This document shows, piece after piece, positions 4,960-51,470 of a DNA stretch of 64,000 bases. Source of the DNA: Gemmatimonadota bacterium (GTDB lineage Bacteria; Gemmatimonadota; Gemmatimonadetes; Palauibacterales; Palauibacteraceae); assembly GCA_965116475.1 (NCBI GenBank), contig OZ220691.1, positions 1,696,001 through 1,760,000 of the forward strand, written 5' to 3'. Both the position numbers and the translations under genes were made by a program. Each line of letters opens with the position of its first letter. Position 1 is the stretch's first letter. The notes beneath the pieces are model-generated. The model worked only from the letters and a program-made list of their open reading frames with translations, made no database searches and had not been told where the DNA came from.

Positions 4960-7167
4960 TCAGCGGCCGTCCGGGCCGGGGTCCGGGGCGGGATCGGCGG
5001 ACGATTCCGCCTCCCACAGGCGCCGCTGCTCGCTGGTCAGGTAGTGCCGGATCGCCGTCGCGTCCTCCATCGAGAGGAGGTCGCCGAAGCCGGCCATGCC
5101 GTTCGCGGCGAGCGCGCCGCCGAGCACCACCGCGTCGAAGCTCTCCCACGCGCCGCCATCCATGCGGCGCAGATCGGGATAGGCGGAGAGGTGTTCGTCC
5201 GAGGCCCGGTGGCAGATGCCGCAGTGGACGCCGAAGAGTTCCGATCCGCGCCGGACCCTGGCCTCGTCGAGCGCGAGATCCGGCGGTTCCGGCGTCGTCG
5301 GCACGATCTGCGCGGGCGGTAGCGGCACTTCCCCGCCGTCGAGCCTGAAGACGAGCAGCCGTCCCGCGCTGTCGTAGTCGTACGCCGCCGAACCGAGCGG
5401 ATAGGCGGCGCCTCTCGGCCCGCCGTAGCCCGCCATGACCGCGATGTACTGCACGCCGTCGACCTCGTACGTCATGGGCCCCGCCATGACGCCGGTGCCG
5501 AGGTGGATGCTGTGGATGCGTGCGCCGGTGTCGGCCTGGTGGAAGTCGAGCGTGCCCACCGCCGTCCCCTGGATGACGAGGTTCCCTCCCGTCACCAGGG
5601 TGCCCCCGTTCCACATGCTGCCGCGCGGAACCCTCCACAGCTCGCGCCCCGCGACGGGGTCCCACGCGAGGAGAAACTCGTTCGGGCCAATGTCCGGGAG
5701 ACCGTCGGCGAGGTGCGCGAACGCCTCCGGGAACGGAGGCCACGAGGCCGTGAAGCCCTCGTACGCGACCTCCGGGCGATGGTCGAACGCCTCCAGCGAA
5801 CGCCACAGCATGGCCTGTTCGCGGGCGGGGATGTAGGCGATGCCCGTCTCGGGGTTGAAGGACATCGGCTGCCAGTTGTGCCCGCCCGCGGAGGACGGGA
5901 AGACGACCCGCGGTTCGTCGCGGTAGTCCGCGGCCGGGTTCGGGATCGGCCGGCCCGTCTCGAAGTCGATCCCCCGCGCCCACGTGACGGTCACGAAGTT
6001 CTCCGCCTGCAGCAGCTCCCCCGTGGCGCGGTCGAGCACGTAGAAGAAGCCGTTCTTGGGGGCCTGCATCAGGACATCGCGCGGGCCGCCGTCGATCGTG
6101 ACCGTGCTCAGGATGAGGTTCTGCGTCGCGGTGTAGTCCCAGATCTCGCCCGGCACCGTCTGGTAGTGCCAGACGAGGCGCCCGGTCTTCGGGTCGATGG
6201 CGAGGATGGAGACGAGGTAGAGGTTGTCGCCCCCCGACGGGCTCCGGTGCCAGATCGGGTACGGGTAGGCGTTCCCCGTCCCCACGTAGAGAAGGTCGAG
6301 CCGGGGGTCGTAGGCCATCTCCCCCCACACGGTGCCCCCGAGTCCCCCCTCCCAGGCCGAGTCCGGGTCCCACGTGGCGGCGGCCGCCTCCATCTCCGGG
6401 TGCTCGAAGCCCTCCGCCGGGTCGCCGGGAACCGTGAAGAAGCGCCACGCCTCCTCGCCGGTCTCGAGGTCGTAGGCCGTGATGTAGCCGCGCACGCCGA
6501 AGTCGCCGCCGGCGTTGCCGAGGACGACGACGTCGCCGGCGATCTGCGGCGAGCCGGTGCTCGTGTAGGAGAGGGACCGGTCGATGAAGGTGTCGACGCG
6601 CCACACCTCCTCGCCCGTCGCCGCGTCGAGCGCCACCAGCCAGCCGTCGAAGGTGCCGACGTAGACGCGCCCCTCCCACACCTCGAGTCCGCGGTTGACC
6701 GGGCCGCAGCAGCCCTTGCGCGTGGTGCTCGGGTCGACCGGCGGATCGTAGCGCCAGACCGGTGCTCCCGTCGCGGCGTCGAGCGCCGCGACGCTTCCCC
6801 ACGGCCCGGGCGAGTACATCACGCCGTCCACGACCACGGGAGTGGCCTCGAGCCCCCAGTGCACGGAGCCGACGTGGGACCGCCACTCGTATTCCCAGGC
6901 GAGCCCCACGGCGGCCGCGTTCATGACGTGAATCCGTCCGAGCGGAGAATACCGGGTCTCCCCGAAATCGCGGCCGGAGGTCAGCCACTCCGCCGCGACC
7001 GTATCCGTCGCCAGCAGACGGTCCCGGTTGACGGCGCCGGCCGCGTCGCGGGGCGGCGAGGGTGCGCAGGCCGCCAGCGCGCCGGCCACCAGTGCGCCGG
7101 CCACCAGCCCACAGGCCGCGAAGCGTGCGTCAGCCAGCCGACGGACGTCCGGATTGCCGCGAGCCAC
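4960..7167 (-). CDS. PQQ-dependent quinohemoprotein (type II) alcohol dehydrogenase with C-terminal cytochrome c
   Basis: Signal/lipobox LAAC; vicinal CC (GCCGPVNRG); WDYTATQ (Ca-type, not DxD); QAPKNGFFYVLDR; heme motif CGICH. Confidence 0.92.
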   Translation of the reverse strand: MARGNPDVRRLADARFAACGLVAGALVAGALAACAPSPPRDAAGAVNRDRLLATDTVAAEWLTSGRDFGETRYSPLGRIHVMNAAAVGLAWEYEWRSHVGSVHWGLEATPVVVDGVMYSPGPWGSVAALDAATGAPVWRYDPPVDPSTTRKGCCGPVNRGLEVWEGRVYVGTFDGWLVALDAATGEEVWRVDTFIDRSLSYTSTGSPQIAGDVVVLGNAGGDFGVRGYITAYDLETGEEAWRFFTVPGDPAEGFEHPEMEAAAATWDPDSAWEGGLGGTVWGEMAYDPRLDLLYVGTGNAYPYPIWHRSPSGGDNLYLVSILAIDPKTGRLVWHYQTVPGEIWDYTATQNLILSTVTIDGGPRDVLMQAPKNGFFYVLDRATGELLQAENFVTVTWARGIDFETGRPIPNPAADYRDEPRVVFPSSAGGHNWQPMSFNPETGIAYIPAREQAMLWRSLEAFDHRPEVAYEGFTASWPPFPEAFAHLADGLPDIGPNEFLLAWDPVAGRELWRVPRGSMWNGGTLVTGGNLVIQGTAVGTLDFHQADTGARIHSIHLGTGVMAGPMTYEVDGVQYIAVMAGYGGPRGAAYPLGSAAYDYDSAGRLLVFRLDGGEVPLPPAQIVPTTPEPPDLALDEARVRRGSELFGVHCGICHRASDEHLSAYPDLRRMDGGAWESFDAVVLGGALAANGMAGFGDLLSMEDATAIRHYLTSEQRRLWEAESSADPAPDPGPDGR

Positions 7168-7174
7168 GGGCCTG

Positions 7175-9328
7175 TTAGAAGCGCGGAGTTACGGTGAGGC
7201 GGAAGCTTCGGGTGGGTCCCGGACTCCGTTCCTGCACGTCCACATAGGTCGTCTGGAACAGGTTCTCGATCTTCGCCTGCACGCGAGTCCCCAGAATCCG
7301 GGTGCGCACGCGCAGGTCGACGAGGTTGATCGCGCTGCGCTCGTCGAGCGGGAAGGCGAGCACCTGCTCCACGCGGCTCCGGTGCCGGAAGTCGATGGCG
7401 ACCATGCCTCTCAACCCGGACGCCGTCGCCGTGAAGTTGTGTCGCGACCGGTAGGGGAGCGCGCGCCCGGTCCGGTCGTCCCTCGTGTCGAGGAAGGTGT
7501 AGTTCGCGTTGAGGTCCAGGCGGGTCGGGATCACGCCGATCCGCAAACCCGCGTCGACGCCCCGCACCATGGCCTCGGCGACGTTGCGGAACTGAAACAC
7601 GAACACGTTGTTGGGCGCCGGCGACGGTTCGATGAGATCGGTGTAGTCGCTCCAGAAGAGTCCGGCGTCCAGCCAGACGCGATCGCTCACGTGCACGGTC
7701 GCCCCGACCTCCCGGGCCCAGGCGGATTCTCCCCGCAGTTCGAGATTGGGGATGACGCGAAATCCGAACTGGGTCGTCGAAGTGAACTGCTCGGACACGC
7801 TCGGCGCCCGGTATCCGCGGCTGAGCGACCCTCGAAAGCTCAACCGGTCGCTCGCCTCGTACACGATCCCGAGTTTCGGATTGACGAACCGGTCCTCCAT
7901 CGCTGCCGAGGCGTTGTGGTAGTCGAGTCGCAGGCCCACCGAGCCGCGAACCCGATCCGAGAAAGTGATCTCATCCTGCGCGAACAGCGCGAGGTCCGTC
8001 ACGTCCGGCGACGGCGCCAGGAAATTCGAGGTCACGCCGGTGAAGGCGCCTTCCGCCCCGATCGTCAGCGCGTGCGAGCCGTTGGGAAAGAGGGACCACT
8101 GGAGATCGGTGCCGATCCGCGTGGAGCGGTGGAAATCCTCGTTGTCGTGGAAGTAGTTCTGGTTCCGCGCGTGGTAGACGTGCGGCCGCACCTGCACGCG
8201 GTGCTTCGGCGTGACGATCGGATTGGCCGTTACGCCGAAGACGATGTCGTCCGAGCGAATCCAGTCCCCGAGTTCCGTCGGATCGACTTCCAGGGGACGG
8301 TCCGCCGACAGCCAGGTGAAGAACTCCTCCTCTTCCTTTCGCGTCCAATTGACGAAGATCTCCCAAGGGTTGGAGGATTCCGCCGGGAAGACCGTCTTGA
8401 GCCGCATCCGCCAGCGCTCGAGCGCGCCGTTCTGCCGGAACCCGTCCGACTCCTCGCGCGCGAGGTACAGGGTGGCACCGACATCCCCGAGGCGGCGTGA
8501 GTGCTGCAGGGCGAGCCCTTCCCTGCTCAGGCTCTCGTCCGTGAACGAGTGTCGGGCCGGGGTGTCGAAGAGCCCCACGTAGCCGCGGACGATGGTCTCG
8601 GGCTCCGGGGGGGGGCGTTTCGTGATCACGTTCACGACGCCGCCCAGCGCGTTCGTCCCCCACAGGGTGGAATGCGGACCCTTCACGATCTCGATCTGGT
8701 CCACGTCCAGCACGGGCAGACCGCTGAAATCGATCGACGCGCCCACGCCGGAGAGCACCCGGTGGCCGTCGAGGAGCATGAGCACGCGGCTTCCGACGCC
8801 CCGCGCCAGGCCGGTGGCGCCGCGGATGTCCATCTGGCCGGAGTTGAAGATCACGCCCTGCGCGAAGGGGAGCGCCTCGTCGAGGGTGACGACGTCGCGG
8901 TTGCCGAGTTCGTCACCGCTGATGACGGCGACGCTCACCGGGGCCTCGCCGGAGCGGACGGCGGAGCGGCTCGCCGTTACGGTCAGCTCGGGCACATCGA
9001 ACATCCGGCGCTCGAGCAGGATGCTGAGTTCGCCCGGCTGACCGGTCCGCAGTTCGCGTTCGGCGACGCGAAAGCCGTCCGCGACGACGATCAGGGTGAA
9101 GGTCCCATCGGCGGGGGAGGCGATCCCGAAGCCGCCATCGGGCCGCGTCGTGGCGCTCAGCGGGGTGTCGCGGATGAGCACGGTGGCCCCGGCGAGCGGT
9201 GCGCCCGTCTCCGCGTCCAGTACGCGACCGCGCACGATGGCGTCCTGGGCCTGGGCGGCGAGCGGGGCGCTCGCGTAGAAGGAGGCGAGCGCCGCCCGCG
9301 CGTAGAAAGAGGCGAGCACCGCGCGCAT
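7175..9328 (-). CDS. TonB-dependent receptor
   Basis: N-terminal carboxypeptidase-regulatory-like domain, VTASR, plug motif IEIVKGPHSTLWGTNALGGVVNVIT, C-terminal Phe. Start codon uncertain. Confidence 0.9.
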   Translation of the reverse strand: MRAVLASFYARAALASFYASAPLAAQAQDAIVRGRVLDAETGAPLAGATVLIRDTPLSATTRPDGGFGIASPADGTFTLIVVADGFRVAERELRTGQPGELSILLERRMFDVPELTVTASRSAVRSGEAPVSVAVISGDELGNRDVVTLDEALPFAQGVIFNSGQMDIRGATGLARGVGSRVLMLLDGHRVLSGVGASIDFSGLPVLDVDQIEIVKGPHSTLWGTNALGGVVNVITKRPPPEPETIVRGYVGLFDTPARHSFTDESLSREGLALQHSRRLGDVGATLYLAREESDGFRQNGALERWRMRLKTVFPAESSNPWEIFVNWTRKEEEEFFTWLSADRPLEVDPTELGDWIRSDDIVFGVTANPIVTPKHRVQVRPHVYHARNQNYFHDNEDFHRSTRIGTDLQWSLFPNGSHALTIGAEGAFTGVTSNFLAPSPDVTDLALFAQDEITFSDRVRGSVGLRLDYHNASAAMEDRFVNPKLGIVYEASDRLSFRGSLSRGYRAPSVSEQFTSTTQFGFRVIPNLELRGESAWAREVGATVHVSDRVWLDAGLFWSDYTDLIEPSPAPNNVFVFQFRNVAEAMVRGVDAGLRIGVIPTRLDLNANYTFLDTRDDRTGRALPYRSRHNFTATASGLRGMVAIDFRHRSRVEQVLAFPLDERSAINLVDLRVRTRILGTRVQAKIENLFQTTYVDVQERSPGPTRSFRLTVTPRF

Positions 9329-41896: not shown

Positions 41897-42395
41897 AGGC
41901 GGGGGGTGGCTGGGCGTACGGCTTGAGGTAGGCGGCCGGGTCGGGAGCGGGCCCGGCGTCGCGTCGCCTTCCCTGCGGCGTCTGGCTCTCCAGGGTCGGC
42001 TGGGCGGCCGGCGCGGCGGACGCCACCTGCGCCGGACCGGAGCAGGTGAGGCAGATGCCGAGGCAGTCGCACGGTCCGTCCGAATGGGGATGCGACGGTG
42101 TCGCTGCGCCGGCGCCATCGGCGTGAGAGGACCCCTGGTGGCGGTCCGTATCGCCGCGGTCCGCATGGCCGTGGTCCGCGTGGCCGTGGTCCGCGTGCGT
42201 CCCGTGGAGAGCGACGGCCCGGGTCCCCGCCTCGTCGCCGTGCGTCGCCCGGTGCTTCGGACAGGGCTGAACGGCCGCGCCGGGCCCGATGCCGATGAGG
42301 AAGGCCGCGATGACGGCGTACAAATCCATGCGGACGCGTACGCGCCGCCCACGGGCGATGGCGATCCTCCGTCCCGGACGCTTTCGAGCCATCAT
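41895..42395 (-). CDS. DUF2946/CutF/CruR-like His-rich CxxC leader protein
   Basis: Basic N-terminus plus hydrophobic segment; HADHG repeats; CDCLGICLTC; C-terminal PYAQPPPA. ATG 42395 overlaps the PDZ stop (alternative start 42329). Confidence 0.7.
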   Translation of the reverse strand: MMARKRPGRRIAIARGRRVRVRMDLYAVIAAFLIGIGPGAAVQPCPKHRATHGDEAGTRAVALHGTHADHGHADHGHADRGDTDRHQGSSHADGAGAATPSHPHSDGPCDCLGICLTCSGPAQVASAAPAAQPTLESQTPQGRRRDAGPAPDPAAYLKPYAQPPPA

Positions 42396-43501
42396 CGCCG
42401 GGGCCAGACCCCGCTCATCTCTTCGCCTCTCCGAACCCACACCACTCCGAGACCCTCGCTCTCCTCCGACTCGAGCGCGACGACGAGGTCGTCCAGTTCG
42501 CGGATCGGACGCTCGCCCGCTCTCACGAGGAGATCTCCCGGCCGGAGCCCGAGGCGGTCGGTGACCGTCCCTCTCGCAACCCTGAGCACGAGCAGGCCGT
42601 CGAGGGCGGGGCGGTCGGAAAAGTCGCGCACGGGCTCGAACTCGGCCCCCGCGAACGTGCGGTGGAAGCGGACGGCGAGTTCGGTTTCCGTCAATGCCAG
42701 TTGAGCGATGCGAATCGCGCGGCGCCGAAACTCCATCGGCGAGAGGCGGGCCCGTACCGCTCCGACACGTTCGAGCGCGACGGCGAAGTTTCGATAGGCC
42801 GATTCCGACTCCCGCTGCAGGTCGCTCAGCACTTCCCGGCGGACCGCCGGCAACTCCGAGGCGGGGCGGTCCCGCACCGGCAGAATGTTGAGCCGGCCGT
42901 CGACGACGCGCACGGCGGAGGGCTCCACGGCCACGCCGATGTCCTCCGTATCGCGGACGGTGAGAGCGAATCCGGGGCGGTCGCCATCCGCCGGATCCGT
43001 CAGCCAGAGCACGAACATGTTCCGCTGCGGGTCCCCGGCGGTCGCCACCACCGTCCGGCGGCCCACCATCGGAAGGTCGTCCGCATCCGCCGGCCGGACG
43101 TCCGGAATCACTTCAAAGGCCTGGCGCAGTCCGTCTCGAGTCACTTCCAGCCGAACGGGAACGCTCGGGCGGATGGACGCGAGCCTGTCCGGCAGGTTCG
43201 CGAGCGTGAGTTCCACGCCGTCCATCGCCGCGAGTCGGTCGCCGGCGCGGAGCCCCGCCCGCTCCGCCGGCCCCCCTTCCTGCATCTCGCGAATCCGGAG
43301 AATGAGCGTGCAGTTCTTCCAGTCTTCCGAAGTCTCCCAGCCGCAGTTGTAGCGTTCGTCGATCCGCACCCCGATCCAGCCGGCGGATTCCGCCGTCCCG
43401 GCCTCCTGCGCGGCGCCGGCGAGGACGGCGAACGGCAGGGCGGCCAGAGCCAGGGCCGAGGCAAGCAGCGCGCGCGGAGACCGCGGGAGGGGCCGGGTCA
43501 C
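42392..43501 (-). CDS. Exported PDZ-domain protein (two PDZ-like domains)
   Basis: Signal peptide; GWIGV...GGPAERAGLRAGD; second GLLVLRV...LGLRPGDLL; no protease triad seen. Confidence 0.8.
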   Translation of the reverse strand: MTRPLPRSPRALLASALALAALPFAVLAGAAQEAGTAESAGWIGVRIDERYNCGWETSEDWKNCTLILRIREMQEGGPAERAGLRAGDRLAAMDGVELTLANLPDRLASIRPSVPVRLEVTRDGLRQAFEVIPDVRPADADDLPMVGRRTVVATAGDPQRNMFVLWLTDPADGDRPGFALTVRDTEDIGVAVEPSAVRVVDGRLNILPVRDRPASELPAVRREVLSDLQRESESAYRNFAVALERVGAVRARLSPMEFRRRAIRIAQLALTETELAVRFHRTFAGAEFEPVRDFSDRPALDGLLVLRVARGTVTDRLGLRPGDLLVRAGERPIRELDDLVVALESEESEGLGVVWVRRGEEMSGVWPRR

Positions 43502-44184
43502 CAGGTTCGCGTCCCGTTCGCGCGGCCGAGATCCTCCGCGAGCCGATCGCGCATCTCCACGAGTTCCAGCAGATAGGCGCTGGCGAAGGGATCGTCGGGA
43601 TAGGTCTCGAGGCGGTCGCGCAGGGCGCGGATCGACCCTTCGAGCCTCGCCAGCCTCTGCGCCATCTCCAGGGGATCTTCCCCCCTCAGCCCTTCCGAAG
43701 CGGGACCCGTCCCACCCTCTCCGACCTGTCGGAGCGGCGACCGCAGCGACTCCATCCGGCTGAGCCCGTCCACGAGGGCGCGACCGTCATCGGTGGAGAC
43801 GACGGCCGGGAGATCCGCGGCCGGCGGGTTCGCGGACCGGCCGCCCGTGAACTGCAGGCCGGCGATCACGCCGCCGGCGAACAACGTGAGGGCGGCGGCG
43901 GCCTGGAGCGGTCCCCGGACGAAGAGACGGCCGACGAGGCCTCCTCCGACCCGGCGGACGCCGGCACGCGTCGCGCCGGCATCGAGCGCGGCTTCGATAG
44001 CGGCCCACTGTCCCGCGGGCGCCTTCTCATCCGGAAGCGCGGACAGCGCCATGCGCATCCGGCTCAACCGCTCGAACTCCGCCTGGCACTCGCCGCATGT
44101 CGCGAGGTGGGCCCGGCAGTCCCCGTCCGCCCACGGCTCGTCGAGCAGTGCCGAGATTCGCTCGGCATCCATGTGGTTCGCCAT
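43498..44184 (-). CDS. Zinc-binding (ZAS) transmembrane anti-sigma factor
   Basis: HLATCGEC (Hx3Cx2C) motif and a single TM; directly downstream of the ECF sigma. Confidence 0.85.
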   Translation of the reverse strand: MANHMDAERISALLDEPWADGDCRAHLATCGECQAEFERLSRMRMALSALPDEKAPAGQWAAIEAALDAGATRAGVRRVGGGLVGRLFVRGPLQAAAALTLFAGGVIAGLQFTGGRSANPPAADLPAVVSTDDGRALVDGLSRMESLRSPLRQVGEGGTGPASEGLRGEDPLEMAQRLARLEGSIRALRDRLETYPDDPFASAYLLELVEMRDRLAEDLGRANGTRTW

Positions 44185-44198
44185 CTCTTCTATCCCTC

Positions 44199-44756
44199 TC
44201 AGAGGCCCGCTTCGCCACGCGCACCGCCGTTCCCGGAATCTTCCGGAGCGATGAGCTTCCGCATGCGCGCCCGCGCCTTGTGCAACTGCGATTTCGACGT
44301 GCCGGGCGCACACCCCAGCTCCTCGGCGATGTCGTTGTGCGTCCAGCCCTCCACGTCGTGCAGCACGAGGACTCTCCGGTACCCCGGCGGCAACTGGTCC
44401 AGCGCCTGGGTCAGGACCCGCCGCGTAACGATCACGTCGTCGTGCGCCCGCGCCACGCGCGGGAGCTCCGCGGCGGACTCCACCGGCCGCCGCTTCGACG
44501 ACCGGCGCAGCCGGTTGAGCGCCACGTTCGTCGCCAGCCGGTAGAGCCACGTGCCGAAGGCCGCATCGCCGCGAAAGAGGTGGAGCTTCTCGAACGCACG
44601 GATCCACGCTTCCTGGGAGAGGTCCTCCGCGAGGTGATCGTCGCCCACGAGGCGGCGAATCACGGTGTAGACGCGCCGCGCATGGAGTTCGTACAACTCT
44701 CCCATCGCGGATCGCTCTCCCGCCTTCGCGCAGGCGATCAGGTCGCGTTCTTCCAC
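44199..44756 (-). CDS. ECF RNA polymerase sigma factor
   Basis: AEDLSQEAWIRAF, FGTWLYRLATN, HDVEGWTHNDIAEELG..PGTSKSQLHKAR. Confidence 0.95.
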   Translation of the reverse strand: MEERDLIACAKAGERSAMGELYELHARRVYTVIRRLVGDDHLAEDLSQEAWIRAFEKLHLFRGDAAFGTWLYRLATNVALNRLRRSSKRRPVESAAELPRVARAHDDVIVTRRVLTQALDQLPPGYRRVLVLHDVEGWTHNDIAEELGCAPGTSKSQLHKARARMRKLIAPEDSGNGGARGEAGL

Positions 44757-44795
44757 GTCATCCCTCTGCAGGTCACCTTCCGGATCCACCGCTTT

Positions 44796-44821
44796 GATGC
44801 GCGGTTCAGGCGGCGGGTTGC
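44796..44821 (-). promoter_or_regulatory. Putative autoregulatory ECF promoter GCAACC-N16-CATC
   Basis: About 40 nt upstream of the sigma start; same geometry as the motifs at 11356-11439. Confidence 0.5.
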
Positions 44822-45693
44822 CCGCCCTCGGGTGCTCCGGCGTCCCCGGCCCGGGATTCGGTCGCCCGCAGTACGGCGCAGACCAGCAGCCCGAGCAGGA
44901 TGCCCGCGAGGGCGTCGGCCGCATAGTGGAAGCGACCGTACACCGTCCCCGCCGTCAACGCGAGTTCCGGGACGATGAGGAGCCAGAACCAGCGTCGATC
45001 CTCGCGTCCGGCGGCTACGACCGCGGCCAGGGAGGCGGCGATGTGGGAACTGGGGAAAGCCGTGCCCTTCGACGATCCGGCCTCCAGGATCCCGTGCACG
45101 ATCCCGAACAGCGTCCCCTCGCCGATCGCGCCGCCGATCTGCGCGAACTCGTAGCGGGGGCCCGCGACCGGGAAGAACATGAAGATGAGATAGGAGACGA
45201 AGAAGGCGGCGGCCACGGCGAGGGCGGTGCGCTGCAGGGCCTCGACCCCCCGCGTCGCGAACACGCCCAGGATGGCGGCGGGGATGACGGCGTAGTAGGC
45301 GAAGTAGCCCAGGTGCAACACCTCGGAGAAGGGGAGCCAGGGGAGCGACGCGCTGAGGCCGATGCTCGGCTGTCCGCCGAACATGGCGGCATCCCACGCC
45401 TGCACCGTGGCGTCGAAGTACCGCTGCGTGAGAAAGCGGTTGAGGACCGCGAGTTCCGCATAGAGGAGGGGCGTGAGGAGCACGGCGTACGCCGCCCTCG
45501 CGATCGCGGCGAGGCCGGCGCGGGGGTGCCAGGCCGCAAGTCGCGTGATCCCGAACACGGCGATCGCGTGGGCCGCGGCGATGCCCGCGCCGGGCAGGCC
45601 GCCGAACGCCAGCGAAACGAGGCCCGTGCAACCGAAGTAGCCGATGGCGACGCGATCGACGGGCAGGAGCCCTCCGCTGCGGCCCACGCTCAC
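44806..45693 (-). CDS. PAP2-superfamily membrane protein, Aur1/IPC-synthase-like
   Basis: Multiple TMs; FPVAGPRY, AFPSSHIA, VYGRFHYAAD catalytic motifs; GTGA overlap with the upstream gene. Confidence 0.8.
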   Translation of the reverse strand: MSVGRSGGLLPVDRVAIGYFGCTGLVSLAFGGLPGAGIAAAHAIAVFGITRLAAWHPRAGLAAIARAAYAVLLTPLLYAELAVLNRFLTQRYFDATVQAWDAAMFGGQPSIGLSASLPWLPFSEVLHLGYFAYYAVIPAAILGVFATRGVEALQRTALAVAAAFFVSYLIFMFFPVAGPRYEFAQIGGAIGEGTLFGIVHGILEAGSSKGTAFPSSHIAASLAAVVAAGREDRRWFWLLIVPELALTAGTVYGRFHYAADALAGILLGLLVCAVLRATESRAGDAGAPEGGQPAA

Positions 45694-46643
45694 AGCCAGC
45701 CCATGCGGCGATACCAGTCGGCGGTGCGCGCGAGCCCTTCTTCGATACCGACGCGCGGGCGCCAGGGGTCGAGATGCTTGCGGCTCGACTCGATGTCGCA
45801 CGTCCACGCGTATGCGGACAGATCCCGCGCGCGCCTCCGGTCGAAGGCCGGAGCGTTGCCCGTCAGGCGGCCCGCGAGTTCCGACAGCGCCCCGGCGGCG
45901 AGGAAGAGCGCGGACGGCACCCGCAGAACCCGGCCGGGGCGGCCCACGGCGGCCATCAGCCCGCGCGCCACCGCCGGCCAGGTACGGCGTTCCGCGCCGG
46001 CGACGGGAAGCGGGCGCGGCGCCGGCGGCGCCTCGAGGGCGGCGAGGACGGCCGAGACGACATCGGCGACGTACACCGGCTGCAGGGGCGCGTCGTTGCG
46101 CGGAATCGCGGTCCACCCTCGCGCCGCCAGCCGGAAGAGCGGCAGCAGGTCGGAGTCCCGCGGGCCGTAGACGCCGCCCGGCCTGAGCACGGCGATCTCC
46201 ATCGGCCCGCGGACGGAGGCGAGCGCCGCCTCGGCCCTGGCCTTCGAGCGACCGTACGGGCTCACGGGTCCGGCCGCGCCGTCGGGTCCGCGGGCCGCGA
46301 GGCTGCTGATGAAGACGAACCGTCGCACCCCCGCCTTCGCCGCCGCCCGTGCGAGCCTCCGCGTGCCGGCGGCGTTCACGGCCATGAACTCCGACTCGCT
46401 GCGCGCCCGCGTGAGCGCGCCGCAGTGCACGATGGCGGCGCAGCCCTCGAGTGCCGCGGCCGCTTCTCTCCTGTCCTCCAGCCCGAGGTCGAGTTCGATC
46501 TTCCTCAACTCGAGGCGGTCGAGACGACGCGTGTCGCTCGTTCGCCGCACGCTCGCGGTGACCCGATGTCCGGCCGCGACGAGGGCCTCGGCGAGATGGC
46601 CGCCGAGGAAACCGCTTCCCCCCGTGAGAAGGACCGATGCCAC
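45690..46643 (-). CDS. NAD(P)-dependent extended SDR, candidate ceramide reductase (CerR-like)
   Basis: TGGSGFLG, FVFISSLAA, YGRSK, LRPGGVYGPRD; coupled to the GNAT gene. Confidence 0.8.
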   Translation of the reverse strand: MASVLLTGGSGFLGGHLAEALVAAGHRVTASVRRTSDTRRLDRLELRKIELDLGLEDRREAAAALEGCAAIVHCGALTRARSESEFMAVNAAGTRRLARAAAKAGVRRFVFISSLAARGPDGAAGPVSPYGRSKARAEAALASVRGPMEIAVLRPGGVYGPRDSDLLPLFRLAARGWTAIPRNDAPLQPVYVADVVSAVLAALEAPPAPRPLPVAGAERRTWPAVARGLMAAVGRPGRVLRVPSALFLAAGALSELAGRLTGNAPAFDRRRARDLSAYAWTCDIESSRKHLDPWRPRVGIEEGLARTADWYRRMGWL

Positions 46644-47773
46644 TAAAGGGCCGCTTCGTACAGCCGGTAGGTCCGGTAGACCCTGCCGCCGAGACGCTCG
46701 ATGGCCTGGTTCATCTTCTGGTTGTCCTCGAGAATCCAGGACTGCTCGGCCGACGTCATCCCGGCGGCGATCCCCTTCCTGAACAGCCAGAGGTAGAGGA
46801 GGACATCGACGGCCTTGCCGCGCCATTCCTCGGCAAGCCCCAGGATGATCACGCGCATGCAGGTGATTCTTCGCCGGTAGATGAGCGCCTTGAGAATCCC
46901 GAACGGAAACAGCCGCCCGTTCATGCGGCGCAGCACCTGGTTGAAGTCCGGGAGAGCGAGGGCGAAGCCGGCGGTCTCGCCCTCCGGCGTCTCGGCGAAG
47001 AGGGCAAGTTCGGGGTCCAGGATGGGCTTGAGTTCGGCCGCCATGTGATCCATCTCGGCCTCGGTCATGGGGACGAAACCCCAGTTCTTCTCCCAGGCCG
47101 CGTTGTACAGGCGCTGGACGCGGCCGAGTTCTTCGTCGAATCGCGCCATGTCGAGCGTCTTGATCCGGATGCCGTACCTGCGGGTCACCACCTTTTCGGC
47201 GCGGAAGAGGTGCGGCGGCCAGTCGCCCTTCTTCATGAGCCAGGCGAAGAGATCCTTGGCCTTCCGCAGCCCCGCAGCCTCCATCAGCGCGGGATAGTAC
47301 GGCGGGTTGTAGGCCATGAGGACGACCGGCGGCCCGGGATCTCCGTCTATAAGCAGGCCGCAGGTCTCGTTGGTCGAGAAGCTGGCGGGACCCCGCATCG
47401 CGGTGAGTCCGCGTTCCCGGAGCCAGGCCCGCACCGCGTCGAGCAGCGCCCCGGCCACCTCCCGGTCGTCAACGCACTCGAACCAGCCGAAGAACCCCAC
47501 GGATTCGTCGTGCGTCCGCTCGTGATTCCGGTTCCGGATCGCGCAGATCCGGCCCACGGCCCGGCCATCGCGCAGCGCGAGGTAGGGCTGGACCTCGGAG
47601 TGCAGGTGAAACGGGTGTTTCGCCGGATCGAACGCCGCCCGGACATCTCGCTTCAGCGGGGGCACCCAGTCGGGATCGCCCCGATAGATGGACCACGGCA
47701 GGTCGATGAAGCGCTTCAGATCGGCGCGGCTCTCGACGGGGACGACGCGCACGGAGGAGGCGAGACTCGTCAT
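46643..47773 (-). CDS. GNAT-fold protein, candidate bacterial ceramide synthase (bCerS/YghO-like)
   Basis: FIDLPWSIY..DP.WVPPL, VGRI.A, GFFGWFE, MRGP, MAYNPPYY, WEKNWGFVPMT, ALPDFN, SWILEDN. Confidence 0.8.
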   Translation of the reverse strand: MTSLASSVRVVPVESRADLKRFIDLPWSIYRGDPDWVPPLKRDVRAAFDPAKHPFHLHSEVQPYLALRDGRAVGRICAIRNRNHERTHDESVGFFGWFECVDDREVAGALLDAVRAWLRERGLTAMRGPASFSTNETCGLLIDGDPGPPVVLMAYNPPYYPALMEAAGLRKAKDLFAWLMKKGDWPPHLFRAEKVVTRRYGIRIKTLDMARFDEELGRVQRLYNAAWEKNWGFVPMTEAEMDHMAAELKPILDPELALFAETPEGETAGFALALPDFNQVLRRMNGRLFPFGILKALIYRRRITCMRVIILGLAEEWRGKAVDVLLYLWLFRKGIAAGMTSAEQSWILEDNQKMNQAIERLGGRVYRTYRLYEAAL

Positions 47774-47789
47774 GGTGGAAGGCGCCGGT

Positions 47790-48992
47790 TCAGACGACGC
47801 CGAGCTTCTTCCCCACGCGCTCCACCTGCTCGAGCACGAAATCGAGGTCGTCGTCCGAGTGCGTGGCCATGTAGCTGGTCCGCAGGCGGCAACTCCCCTC
47901 GGGAACCGCGGGGGGGACGACCGGGTTGGTGAACACGCCCGCTTCGAACAGGGCGCGCCAGAACACGAAGGTCTTCTCCATGGGCCCGATGAGAATGGGG
48001 ACGATCGGGGTCTCGGTCGGCCCGATGTCGAACCCGATCGACTTGAAGCCCTCCATCATCCTGTACGTGTTCTTCCAGAGCTGCTCGCGGCGCTCCGGCT
48101 CATCGCGGATGATCTCCAGCGCCTTCAGCACGGTGGCGGCGGAGGCGGGAGGCATGCTCGCGCTGAACATGAGGGCGCGGGCGTTGTGCTGGAGGTAGTC
48201 GATGACGTCGGCGCGGCCCGCCACGAAGCCACCGATCGAGGCGAAGGACTTGGAGAACGTGCCGAGGATCAGGTCCACCTCATCGGTGAGCCCCCAGTGC
48301 TCGGCGGTCCCGGCCCCGGTCTCGCCCAGAACGCCCACCGCGTGCGCGTCATCCACGAGGATGGCGGCGTCGTACTCTCGCCTCAGTTCGACCAGGGTGG
48401 GCAGATCGGCGATGTCGCCTTCCATGCTGTACACGCCGTCCACCGCGATGAGCTTTCCGCGCGAGGGCGCCTCCGCCTCGAGCATGCGGCGCAGCGTCGC
48501 GAAGTCGTTGTGGTTGAAGCGGCGCGTGCGGCCGAGCCCCAGGCGTACACCGTCCTGGAGGCTGGCGTGGTCCAGCTTGTCGATGTAGACCGTGTCCGCG
48601 CGACCGATCAACGCGCCGAGCGTGCCCAGATTCGTCTGGTAGCCCGTCGAGAATACGAGCGCGGCCTCCATGCCGGTGAAGTCGGCGAGTTCGTCCTCGA
48701 GTTGCTCGTGAAGATCGAGGTTGCCGTTGAGGAAGCGGCTGCCCGTATTGCCGCTGCCGAACTTGTTGAGGGCGTCGCGGGCCGCCTCGAGGACGCGCGG
48801 ATCGTGGGTGAGTCCCATGTAATTGTTGGAGCCCACCATGATCTTGCGGGCGCCGTCGATGACGACCCACGTGTCGTGAGAGGCCTCGATCGGCATGAAG
48901 TACGGATAGAGACCGGCCTCGCGGAGGTTGTGCACGGTCGCTAGTTCACGACACTTGGCAAGGATCGAAGGCGGCTGGACGCGGCTTTTCAT
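47790..48992 (-). CDS. spt: Alpha-oxoamine synthase, most likely serine palmitoyltransferase
   Basis: GLYPYF, GSNNYMGLT, GSRFLNG, DGVYSMEGD, VDDAH, PLP lysine GTFSKS; operon context. Confidence 0.8.
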   Translation of the reverse strand: MKSRVQPPSILAKCRELATVHNLREAGLYPYFMPIEASHDTWVVIDGARKIMVGSNNYMGLTHDPRVLEAARDALNKFGSGNTGSRFLNGNLDLHEQLEDELADFTGMEAALVFSTGYQTNLGTLGALIGRADTVYIDKLDHASLQDGVRLGLGRTRRFNHNDFATLRRMLEAEAPSRGKLIAVDGVYSMEGDIADLPTLVELRREYDAAILVDDAHAVGVLGETGAGTAEHWGLTDEVDLILGTFSKSFASIGGFVAGRADVIDYLQHNARALMFSASMPPASAATVLKALEIIRDEPERREQLWKNTYRMMEGFKSIGFDIGPTETPIVPILIGPMEKTFVFWRALFEAGVFTNPVVPPAVPEGSCRLRTSYMATHSDDDLDFVLEQVERVGKKLGVV

Positions 48993-49129
48993 TGAGCCCG
49001 ACCGGGTCACCGCAGCTTGGGATGTAGGATTCTGCACGAAGCGAAGCTAAGCGCGAATCGGGACGCCCGGCAAGGAAAAACGGCCGTCCCGGCCCGTTGA
49101 ATCGATCACCCTCCACGGGGAGCAGGAAC

Positions 49130-50602
49130 GTGGTTCGAAACCGGACGTTCGACATCGTAGCCATCGGCGGGGGTACGGCGGGTCTTGTGACGGCGGCCGG
49201 AAGCGCGGGGCTGGGCGCAAGCGTGGCCCTGGTCGAGCGCGACCGCCTTGGCGGCGACTGCCTGTGGACGGGATGCGTACCGTCCAAGGCCCTCATCGGC
49301 TCGGCCCGCGTGGCCCGGCACGTTCGCGACGCGACCTCGTTCGGACTCGGGGTCCCGCGGCAGGAGATCGAAGCGGACGGCGTGCTGTCGAGCGTCCGCG
49401 AGGTCCGCGCGCAGATCGAGCCGCACGACGATCCGGAGCGTTTTCGCGCCATGGGCGTCGATGTCGTCGAGGGAGAGGCGCGCTTCGTGTCGCCGCACGA
49501 AGTCGAGGTGGACGGCCGGCGCCTCCGCGCGCGGCGCTTCGTGATCGCCACCGGCTCGAGAGCCGCGGTGCCCCCCATCCCAGGGCTCGAGGAGGCGGGT
49601 TATTTCACGCACGCCGAGGCGTTCGACCGTGACACGATCCCCGCCTCGCTCGCGGTGGTGGGCGGCGGGCCGATCGGCGTCGAACTCGCCCAGGCGTATC
49701 GCCGTCTCGGGACCGAGGTCACGGTCGTCGAACTGCTCGACCGGCTCATGGTGCGCGAGGAACCCGAACTCGCGGACCTGCTGACGAGCAGGCTGCGCGA
49801 CGAGGGTATCCGTATCCGCACGGGCCGAGTCGTGACGCGGGTCGACCGCGCCGGGAACCGCCGGCGGGTGACGATCGCGCCTCCCGCCGCCGCGGAGGGG
49901 GGGACGAGCGGGGAGGAGGGGAGCGAGACGTTCGAAGTCGACGAGGTTCTCGTCGCCGCGGGGCGGGCGCCCAACACGGAGGGTCTGGGACTGGACGCCG
50001 CCGGGGTCGAGACCGCCGGGGGCTGGGTCACCGTCGACGCCAGGCTCCGCACTTCCCGCAAGCACATCTTCGCGGCGGGCGACGTGACCGGCGGGTTCCT
50101 GTTCACGCACGTCGCCGACCACGAAGCGCGCACCGTGGTCCAGAACGCGCTCTTTCCCGTGCGCGCCAACATCGACTATCGCGTGATCCCCTGGTGCACC
50201 TATACCGACCCCGAACTCGCGCACGTCGGCCTCACCGAAGCCGAGGCGCGAGATCGGCACGGGGCCTCGGTGTCCGCCCACGTCTACGACATTGGGAATC
50301 TCGACCGCGCGATCGCCGAACGCGCCGCCATGGGCCGGGTGAAGATCGTCGTCGGCAAGGGGGGCCGGATTCTCGGCGGACACATCCTGGCGCCCGACGC
50401 GGGGACGATGATCGCGGAGATCTCGCTCGCCATGAAGGCCGGGGTGAAGCTGGGGACGCTCGCGTCGCTGGTTCATCCGTATCCGACGATGAGCGAGGGC
50501 GTGAAGCGTACCGCCGACGCCTACCGCAGATCGACGCTGACGGGATGGAGGAAATCGGCCGTCGACCTCGCGCTCAGGATCGGGCGCGCGCTACCGCCCT
50601 GA
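49130..50602 (+). CDS. Pyridine nucleotide-disulfide oxidoreductase (Lpd/MerA-like)
   Basis: GGDCLWTGCVPSK, GGGPIGVE, HPYPTMSE; no C-terminal Cys-Cys. Confidence 0.88.
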   Translation: MVRNRTFDIVAIGGGTAGLVTAAGSAGLGASVALVERDRLGGDCLWTGCVPSKALIGSARVARHVRDATSFGLGVPRQEIEADGVLSSVREVRAQIEPHDDPERFRAMGVDVVEGEARFVSPHEVEVDGRRLRARRFVIATGSRAAVPPIPGLEEAGYFTHAEAFDRDTIPASLAVVGGGPIGVELAQAYRRLGTEVTVVELLDRLMVREEPELADLLTSRLRDEGIRIRTGRVVTRVDRAGNRRRVTIAPPAAAEGGTSGEEGSETFEVDEVLVAAGRAPNTEGLGLDAAGVETAGGWVTVDARLRTSRKHIFAAGDVTGGFLFTHVADHEARTVVQNALFPVRANIDYRVIPWCTYTDPELAHVGLTEAEARDRHGASVSAHVYDIGNLDRAIAERAAMGRVKIVVGKGGRILGGHILAPDAGTMIAEISLAMKAGVKLGTLASLVHPYPTMSEGVKRTADAYRRSTLTGWRKSAVDLALRIGRALPP

Positions 50603-50612
50603 ATACACCTCT

Positions 50613-50642
50613 GCCGACACTTCAGCCGACACTTCAGCCGAC
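50613..50642. repeat. 12-bp tandem repeat spanning the fdhD stop
   Basis: GCCGACACTTCA x2 plus GCCGAC. Confidence 0.8.
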
Positions 50643-51470
50643 GCGGTGGCGCCCGGCGTAGATGTTGAAACCCGTCGGCTTCGCGAAGCCAATCAGCGTC
50701 ATCCCGAACTCGCCGGCCACATCGACGGCGAGGCTGGAGGGGGCGCCCACGGCCGCGACGATCGGGATGCCGGCGGCGAGCGCCTTCTGCATGATCTCGA
50801 AGGAGGCCCGGCCGCTCACGGCCAGCACCGCGTCGCCGAGCGGCAGATCTCCCTCGAGGAATCGGTCGCCGATCACCTTGTCGAGCGCGTTGTGGCGCCC
50901 GATGTCTTCGCGCAGGAGACGCAGTTCACCCGCCGTATCGAACAGGCCGGCCGCGTGCAGCCCGCCCGTCCGTTCGAACACCGGCTGCCGACTGCGGAGC
51001 GCTTCGGGGAGGGTGCGGACGATCTCGGCCGCGATGGTCGGGCCTTCCGCCGGCACGGGGGCACAGCCCCGAATCTCGATCGCCTCGAGGGAGGCTTTTC
51101 CGCAAACGCCGCAACTCGATGTCGTATAGAAGTTCCGGGTGAGTTCCGCCGGGTCGAAGCGCGCCGTGTCGCTCAGGTGCGCGGTGACGATGTTGTATTC
51201 CTGCGGTTCCACATCGACGCAGTACCGCAGGTCGGCGATGTCGGACCGCTGTCCCAGCAGCCCCTCCGAGAAGAGGAACCCGGCCGTGAGGTCGAAGTCA
51301 TCCCCCGGGGTGCGCATGGTCACGGCCACCTGGTGCTCGCCTCCATCGGCGGGCGCGATCCGGATCTCGAGCGGCTCTTCGACCGCGACGGCGTCGCGCC
51401 GCCTGCGGCTGGACGCTTCGGACACGCGATCGATGTCGACGCGGGCGGTGTTCCTCCGGGGCGTAATCAT
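50634..51470 (-). CDS. fdhD: Formate dehydrogenase accessory sulfurtransferase FdhD
   Basis: EEPLEI, MRTPGDD, SSCGVCG, TGGLHAA, EDIGRHNALDK, SGRASFE. Confidence 0.95.
   Translation of the reverse strand: MITPRRNTARVDIDRVSEASSRRRRDAVAVEEPLEIRIAPADGGEHQVAVTMRTPGDDFDLTAGFLFSEGLLGQRSDIADLRYCVDVEPQEYNIVTAHLSDTARFDPAELTRNFYTTSSCGVCGKASLEAIEIRGCAPVPAEGPTIAAEIVRTLPEALRSRQPVFERTGGLHAAGLFDTAGELRLLREDIGRHNALDKVIGDRFLEGDLPLGDAVLAVSGRASFEIMQKALAAGIPIVAAVGAPSSLAVDVAGEFGMTLIGFAKPTGFNIYAGRHRVG

Follow-up and report, generated by a model that had tools for sequence, protein, structure and literature searches.

What does a bacterium make when the genes for a ceramide pathway are joined to one for a PAP2 membrane protein, and what would that fourth protein do? 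The question is raised by four genes at 44806..48992 in a 64,000-nt stretch of contig OZ220691.1 (GCA_965116475.1, positions 1,696,001-1,760,000, forward strand), referred to here as the window. Its source is a genome of 3.62 Mb on one contig, with a completeness of 96% and ~69% GC. An earlier sequence-only reading of the window had proposed a complete ceramide operon. We find that the operon probably makes a phosphosphingolipid. Dihydroceramide synthesis by the first three gene products is very likely and, given those steps, transfer of a phospho-head group by the fourth is likely; all activities named here are predicted from homology, phylogeny, fold, motifs, synteny and co-occurrence.

As had been proposed, the four genes are co-oriented, and they are open reading frames (ORFs) of the minus strand. 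In the order in which they would be read, they are:

47790..48992, minus strand: spt, an alpha-oxoamine synthase (AOS) and Bacteroidota-like serine palmitoyltransferase (Spt); 400 aa, ATG start, pyridoxal phosphate (PLP) lysine K248 and Spt-type Ala278
46643..47773, minus strand: bcerS, a homologue of bacterial ceramide synthase (bCerS) from the YghO family with a tandem GNAT fold; 376 aa, ATG start
45690..46643, minus strand: cerR, an extended short-chain dehydrogenase/reductase (SDR), homologue of the ceramide 3-keto reductase; 317 aa, GTG start
44806..45693, minus strand: Aur1-fold PAP2_3 membrane enzyme, a predicted ceramide phospho-head-group transferase; 295 aa, GTG start, triad H217/H256/D260

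The stop/start overlaps claimed for the last three genes are present, amounting to 1 nt between cerS and cerR (TAG/GTG) and 4 nt between cerR and the PAP2 gene (GTGA), while 16 nt separate spt from cerS. All four ORFs have the composition of real genes, with GC3 of 0.88-0.91 versus GC2 of 0.43-0.61. We collected 79 related loci via homologues of the GNAT protein (bCerS). All four genes occur in 52 of them, 47 times in identical order and strand, so the arrangement is not due to chance. The five rearranged four-gene loci belong to one member each of Gemmatimonadaceae, Desulfarculaceae and Solibacteraceae and to two Myxococcota. The cerS/cerR overlap itself is variable and gives way to a gap of ~25 nt in three close relatives (L028, L029 and L031). 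The bCerS homologue is found in 40/41 relatives, 24/25 genomes of the genus and 80/121 genomes of the phylum, and by this marker the pathway is patchy, with 57/58 positive genomes in one family and 5/28 in another. The host had been guessed to be Gemmatimonadota-like, and rightly so: the closest named relatives (95-97% identity in the GNAT protein) are Candidatus Palauibacter and other Gemmatimonadota genomes, from sponge metagenomes. The literature reports the Palauibacter group from sponges and marine sediments (PMC10469786).

The identity of the first enzyme decides whether the cluster concerns sphingolipids at all. In an IQ-TREE phylogeny of 32 rows, the window AOS falls within a 25-row Spt clade (support 100/99) together with the Spt of E. 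coli BL21, an acp-linked AOS from Roseomonas and a Spt of Bacteroidota that exceeds its NCBIfam cut-off; the three BioF, three Kbl and single HemA sequences are placed elsewhere, in a tree that is midpoint-rooted, has long BioF branches and includes 20 of the 63 Spts from the collected loci. The assignment to Spt rather than BioF or Kbl, made from the ORF translation before any search, is thus borne out. The best of 15 NCBIfam models is SerpalmtaseCFB (NF047600), at 527 bits versus 394 for BioF and 378 for Kbl. The closest PDB structures are the Sphingobacterium-type Spts (3a2b, 8guh; 451 bits), which share the PLP-site motifs of the window enzyme. Counting against the assignment, 527 bits is below the equivalog cut-off of the model (640), a shortfall shared with the Spts of myxobacteria, KSB1 and Gemmatimonadales (516-541 bits). 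The BioF, Kbl and BioF/Kbl-like models also score a substantial 378-397 bits, and thermophile BioF/Kbl structures, the next AOSs in the PDB, score 304 bits, as might be expected if the enzyme were a BioF or Kbl with unrelated neighbors. We regard this as scarcely credible in view of the position in the tree, the gene order conserved with bCerS and CerR homologues, and the presence of a separate Kbl, above its cut-off and adjoining a tdh-like gene, as the only other AOS of the genome.

An Spt-like fold leaves room for another product, since the condensing enzymes of sulfonolipid and sphingolipid synthesis share the fold and most active-site residues (PMC9304779). The cluster could in principle make a ceramide analogue, either a sulfonolipid from cysteate or a 1-deoxyceramide from alanine or glycine; 1-deoxy- and sulfono-ceramides are present in marine waters, and alanine is usable by Spt. 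The active-site residues of the window enzyme are K248, H142, R371, N56 and A278, the last standing at the position of SulA Lys281 (assigned by an offset of +30 from the PLP lysine K248), where a lysine marks sulfonolipid enzymes (PMC9304779). The match to cysteate-C-fatty acyltransferase is 244 bits as against 451 bits to Spt, and the head-group enzyme predicted for the fourth gene requires the 1-OH that derives from serine. We therefore consider an analogue very unlikely and retain a serine-derived ceramide core.

Two observations concern Spt in other organisms. The Spts of four Myxococcota loci (L067:4376-5929, L082:4418-5950, L100:4405-5955 and L078:4389-5921) are ~110 aa longer, at 511-518 aa, owing to a C-terminal extension past the Spt model. 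A plasmid of Priestia megaterium (L123:4995-6209) carries a lone AOS that is 53% identical to the window Spt and lies inside the Spt clade, with neither cerS nor cerR as a neighbor.

The three-enzyme ceramide pathway is established in Caulobacter, and YghO of E. coli has reportedly been assayed in vitro. Our references for the pathway were the homologues from E. coli BL21(DE3) (ECD_02854, ECD_02850 and ECD_02852). Of these, yghO/ECD_02850 and ECD_02852 are published homologues of Caulobacter CC_1154 (CerS) and CC_1164 (CerR), with their activities in E. coli worded as likely (PMC9386255). A search of the whole genome with YghO returned the second gene as the sole match, and pairwise comparison of the two gave 35% identity over 378 columns (E = 5e-75), upholding the sequence-only identification of this GNAT as bCerS. 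Searches of Pfam, NCBIfam and PDB sequences gave no match to its product, which is thus identified by pairwise comparison and fold; its GNAT label derives from the predicted tandem-GNAT fold (pLDDT, the model confidence score, 91.5; matches to tandem GNAT structures with E down to 2e-14). The second gene very probably encodes a bCerS homologue, with N-acylation of the sphingoid base as its predicted activity. The third gene is likewise the best match of ECD_02852 in the genome, in agreement with its proposed role as CerR, at 32% identity and E = 4e-25, with the next SDR at E = 4e-6; the E. coli Spt also finds the operon AOS first. The CerR candidate belongs to Pfam Epimerase, has a glycine nucleotide-binding motif at residue 7 and a catalytic YxxxK at 130, and begins directly at the Rossmann strand, with no evident signal peptide. 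It reaches 95-98 bits with the models for HpnA and OleD, well short of their cut-offs. Two points tell against these assignments: the references were E. coli homologues and not the Caulobacter proteins, and three bCerS-negative genomes (G072, G079 and G102) hold SDRs with E values of 1e-22 to 4e-36 to the third gene product. Because the SDR family is broad and such similar SDRs occur where bCerS is absent, the CerR assignment is the weaker one and leans on synteny.

The first three enzymes would act as follows. Spt would join L-serine with a fatty acyl-CoA or acyl-ACP (acyl carrier protein) to give 3-ketosphinganine, bCerS would N-acylate the amine, and CerR would reduce the 3-keto group with NAD(P)H to yield dihydroceramide; which of acylation and reduction comes first is a matter of dispute (PMC11087976, PMC11324152). 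Homologues of all three Caulobacter crescentus enzymes, Spt, bCerS (CC_1154) and CerR (CC_1164), and of their E. coli BL21(DE3) counterparts are thus combined in one operon. It differs from both in that its Spt is of the Bacteroidota-like type and that the operon contains no dedicated acp, acpR or aasR gene and no lptFG paralogue. It also differs from Bacteroidota, in which sphingolipid genes are usually unclustered (PMC11334938), and from the bacteria in which cerS is transcribed apart from the de novo genes (PMC11324152), as cerS is here coupled to cerR by overlap.

The fourth gene had been read simply as a PAP2 membrane protein linked to the ceramide genes. Family and linkage both hold, and its product belongs to Pfam PAP2_3; the refinement is that this product resembles Aur1-type transferases, so that the end product of the operon is probably a dihydroceramide with a phospho-head group. 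The predicted model (pLDDT 93.9) has only two Foldseek matches at E<=0.001, both of them structures of yeast Aur1, the inositol phosphorylceramide (IPC) synthase (PDB 9ivc and 9vj4), which is also its best full-length fold match. VIA-align superposes the model on Aur1 with Z = 18.3 over 272 residues (root-mean-square deviation [rmsd], 5.5), as against Z <=15.3 over 162-183 residues for PAP2 phosphatases (LpxE, 15.3 over 162 residues with an rmsd of 2.8) and 11.4 for SMSr. We aligned 41 homologues, drawn from 52 extracted sequences plus that of the window after dropping mostly near-identical ones. Invariant positions include P175, G178, P179, F213, P214, S215, H217, H256, Y257 and D260. The spacing of S215/H217/H256/D260 is identical to that of Aur1 S253/H255/H294/D298, including the Ser before the first His. 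The fourth gene probably encodes a transferase that attaches a phosphate-linked head group, its activity being predicted. In such a step, the Aur1-fold enzyme would transfer the phospho-head group from a glycerophospholipid to the 1-OH of ceramide via phospho-His256, and diacylglycerol would be freed. The head group would thereby come from a single predicted transferase, in contrast to the six-gene CPG2 set of Caulobacter.

PAP2 proteins are also hydrolases, and several results weigh against a transferase. The triad is essential in Aur1 and common to all lipid phosphatases and phosphotransferases (PMC13133130); for this reason His-His-Asp alone is not decisive. The fold match to Aur1 has 16-18% identity and an rmsd of 5.4-6.4 A, and the operon is without a Kei1-like partner. 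Sequence profiles against the PDB place PgpB (E = 2e-5) above Aur1 (E = 0.02). Genes 1 to 3 might accordingly make dihydroceramide beside a PAP2 hydrolase, be it a lipid phosphate phosphatase (acting on ceramide-1-phosphate, phosphatidylglycerophosphate [PGP] or phosphatidylinositol phosphate [PIP]) or an enzyme that strips off head groups in the manner of phospholipase C. PgpB and LpxE are the top profile matches, 10/41 homologues weakly match an undecaprenyl-diphosphate phosphatase model, and the genome is without PgpA, which leaves the dephosphorylation of PGP and PIP to some other enzyme. The PgpB match is confined to the last 75 positions, which hold the C-terminal motifs, and the weak Aur1 match extends over positions 61-275; in structure, phosphatases align over only part of the length that Aur1 covers. 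PAP2 phosphatases are defined by the motifs C1 (KxxxxxxRP) and C3 (SRxxxxxHxxxD). The position of the C3 Arg is Thr250 in the fourth gene product, in which we saw no C1 motif, and no Lys or Arg is invariant among the 41 homologues. Judged on the predicted model, fold discriminates transferase from phosphatase better than the triad does. A hydrolase is thus unlikely, the more so as its subfamily was not found in any of the 41 bCerS-negative genomes, 29 of which have the inositol phosphate synthase MIPS.

The distribution of the subfamily ties the predicted transferase to ceramide. A member is present in 69/121 genomes of the phylum, all 69 of them bCerS positive, and it lies <=2.5 kb from bCerS in 63 of the 69. 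It stays beside spt and cerS in the rearranged clusters of Myxococcota, Desulfarculaceae and Solibacteraceae. On the other side, 11/80 bCerS-positive genomes have no detected member, and the co-occurrence follows family lines for the most part (54/58 genomes in one family, 3/28 in another). Since kin are not independent, we treat it as supportive and attach no statistic. The spt-linked subfamily comprises 1,462 clusters at 50% identity (E<=1e-30), with members in Gemmatimonadota, Myxococcota, Desulfarculaceae, Acidobacteriota, Poribacteria, KSB1 and Calditrichia. Among the 120 matches listed of 510 in a protein search with the PAP2 profile, only unnamed entries or generic 'phosphatase PAP2 family' labels occur.

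Which phospholipid would donate the head group? The genome encodes two phospholipase D-family proteins and three CDP-alcohol phosphotransferases, namely PgsA (above its cut-off), a PgsA/ClsA-like protein and a PIP-synthase-like protein. The gene for the last lies 25 nt upstream of MIPS (G000:C1:3375393-3377397; L108:9394-11398), ~1.63 Mb from the operon. There is no PssA or Pcs among the three, and neither phosphatidylserine decarboxylase (Psd) nor PgpA was found in the genome. Psd occurs in 1 of the 31 genomes sampled for the genus (G000, G001-G024 and G165-G170) versus 58/61 in the phylum. The lack of Psd in the genus disfavors phosphatidylethanolamine (PE) as the donor, and the membranes of Ca. 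Palauibacter may be devoid of PE and depend on phosphatidylglycerol (PG), cardiolipin, phosphatidylinositol (PI) and sphingolipids. Because the operon persists in a genus from which the classical PE pathway is missing, PI(P) and PG are the evident donors. One sponge-type genome of a Longimicrobiales genus (G091) is also without Psd.

A transferase with another donor or acceptor would draw on phosphatidylcholine or PE of the host, yielding sphingomyelin or ceramide phosphoethanolamine, or would exchange the head groups of glycerolipids. The resemblance of the fold to SMSr fits this idea, as do the two to three subfamily paralogues of many genomes in the phylum, some unlinked to bCerS, the Psd of most other Gemmatimonadota, and the sponge origin of the closest relatives, with host lipids at hand. 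Against it, the genus has bCerS in nearly every genome and Psd in almost none, and PssA and Pcs are missing from the CDP-alcohol transferases. We judge such a donor or acceptor quite improbable and return to transfer from PI(P) or PG to dihydroceramide.

Inositol has a bacterial precedent in BT_1522 of Bacteroides thetaiotaomicron, a characterized PAP2_3/Aur1-like PI-dihydroceramide synthase that acts on dihydroceramide, as predicted for the fourth gene product (PMC9246714, PMC8791184). The Palauibacter genome resembles the BT_1522-1526 inositol cluster in having a BT_1523-like PIP synthase that adjoins MIPS. It differs in that the Aur1-fold gene is linked to spt-cerS-cerR rather than to MIPS and that no homologue of PgpA/BT_1525 is present. 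Two further results speak against an inositol head group. MIPS is found in 104/121 genomes of the phylum, including 29/41 that are bCerS negative, and one subfamily-positive genome is without it; being near-universal, it is no pointer to inositol on ceramide. In addition, the BT_1522 model NF052609 (cut-off, 480 bits) has no match in the genome at E<=0.001, with the B. thetaiotaomicron control positive, and is weakly matched by 7/41 homologues of the fourth gene product. The frequency of MIPS also suggests that inositol lipids are widespread in the class Gemmatimonadetes, for which we found no literature report.

Two myxobacteria, Citreicoccus and Hyalangium, possess an spt-linked subfamily member plus a second Aur1-like gene that overlaps MIPS. 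Against the BT_1522 model, the MIPS-overlapping genes reach E = 8e-39 and 6e-44, scores short of its cut-off, and they have no significant pairwise similarity to the spt-linked copies. Their loop motif is PAAPPWY, versus PxxGP in the fourth gene product of the window. On sequence grounds, two such paralogues in one myxobacterial cell suggest two head groups. Myxococcus xanthus ceramide phosphoinositol is cited in PMC9246714, and the MIPS-overlapping, BT_1522-like genes (L130:342-2580 in G171 and L131:673-3001 in G172) are good candidates for a ceramide phosphoinositol synthase.

We had first favored an inositol head group for the window operon and then lowered it, given that MIPS does not track the operon, that the BT_1522 model is unmatched and that two myxobacteria have a separate MIPS-linked paralogue. 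The spt-linked enzyme is the sole PAP2_3 protein found in the Palauibacter genome, so that it may yet transfer inositol there. Between PI(P) and PG, the chances are about even, phosphoglycerol being as likely a head group as inositol. A more specific proposal, which we advance tentatively and would not yet bet on, is that the spt-linked Aur1-fold subfamily is a separate, non-inositol ceramide phosphotransferase that moves phosphoglycerol from PG to dihydroceramide in one step. If true, this PG-dependent route would be unlike both the ceramide phosphoglycerate (CPG) route of Caulobacter and the inositol route of Bacteroides, and in Ca. Palauibacter, with its missing classical PE pathway, the product would rank among the main membrane lipids of an abundant sponge symbiont and would give sponges a bacterial source of sphingolipids.

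How much of this is new? Potential sphingolipid producers, recognized by Spt, bCerS and CerR homology, have already been placed in 40 phyla (PMC11334938), and the ceramide core is very probably an expected further instance of the published pathway, extending a known route without adding a new system. We found no literature report of sphingolipids in Gemmatimonadota. The phylum is not named in the main text of PMC11334938 or of a related preprint; supplementary organism lists of this and other earlier work may already include it. The main text of the Palauibacterales paper does not use 'sphingo', 'ceramide' or 'lipid' (PMC10469786), and the lipids given for Gaopeijia are PE, PG, diphosphatidylglycerol and an unidentified aminolipid (PMC11651109). 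For the head group, ceramide phosphoglycerol (Cer-PG) is listed for Porphyromonas in a review table (PMC10626005), and a study from 2022 found nothing in bacteria that matches the ethanolamine phosphoceramide synthase of eukaryotes (PMC8791184). The new part is the fourth gene, which represents a large, widespread and uncharacterized Aur1-fold subfamily that accompanies ceramide genes and differs from the IPC synthase known in bacteria. The operon leads us to predict phosphosphingolipids in common symbionts of sponges and in a phylum that is widespread. Should the donor prove to be something other than inositol, the subfamily would provide a gene for a ceramide head-group step in bacteria.

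Three further genes follow the operon on the same strand:

44199..44759, minus strand: extracytoplasmic function (ECF) sigma factor, assigned by family matches, 46 nt downstream of the PAP2 gene
43498-44175, minus strand: anti-sigma factor, after the ECF sigma gene
42392-43501, minus strand: PDZ protein, after the anti-sigma gene

An orthologue of the sigma factor (63-98% identity) lies directly downstream of the PAP2 gene in 22/79 loci, with the anti-sigma gene also kept in 22/79 and the PDZ gene in 20/79. No terminator-like site was seen between the PAP2 and ECF sigma genes, and the sigma gene is possibly cotranscribed with the operon; all three genes are at most candidate members of the pathway. 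Their retention hints at a link to envelope-stress control. A search for sigma-70-type promoters at the operon found 0 versus 0.3 expected, and terminator-like sites were uninformative. Contigs of one sponge metatranscriptome cover each of the 30 bins of 42300-50700 and come for the most part from related strains (6/116 pieces at >=99%). These contigs are no evidence of transcription, as they show neither strand nor a single transcript and DNA was possibly present. A single DNA run contains the region unbroken and may be where this genome was assembled from.

The collected genomes also hold departures from the Palauibacter arrangement. Sponge-associated genomes of the Longimicrobiales type (L036, L039, L040 and L042-L047, each at 6001-7131; G109, G152 and G157-G164) carry an orphan bCerS that is 72-74% identical to that of Palauibacter and thus closer to it than the bCerS of the order's sister family (50-53%). 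Searches of 10 genome handles, of which G152 and G159 look like one genome, gave neither a close Spt (the best AOS has 44-45% identity) nor a CerR at E<=1e-20, and those tested have no PAP2 subfamily member. The orphan bCerS may be a transferred gene that re-acylates sphingoid bases of the host. The single AOS match of G152 (L124:5701-8719; 469 aa, with the BioF and Spt models tied at ~360 bits) lies directly upstream of a lipid kinase of the YegS/DAGK family and opposite an acyltransferase, possibly forming a second sphingoid or ceramide-kinase module.

Another member of the phylum, G144, carries a proteobacterial-type cluster (L125:2685-8036) with an AMP-ligase, a reductase, an ACP, an Spt above the SerpalmtaseBetaP cut-off and a convergent bCerS, and the pathway therefore has at least two origins in Gemmatimonadota. 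G107 encodes a 1647-aa fusion of fatty acyl-AMP ligase, acyl-CoA dehydrogenase, ACP and AOS (L126:2569-14616) that adjoins a CerR-like SDR, a PAP2 subfamily member, bCerS and an MBOAT protein; the locus may act as an assembly line that yields a desaturated sphingoid base. A Streptomyces plasmid (L122:3772-8298) has overlapping spt-, bCerS- and CerR-like genes followed by a condensation-domain gene instead of PAP2. Finally, two Myxococcota loci (L078 and L082, at ~8200-9300) have an additional bCerS paralogue immediately behind cerR.

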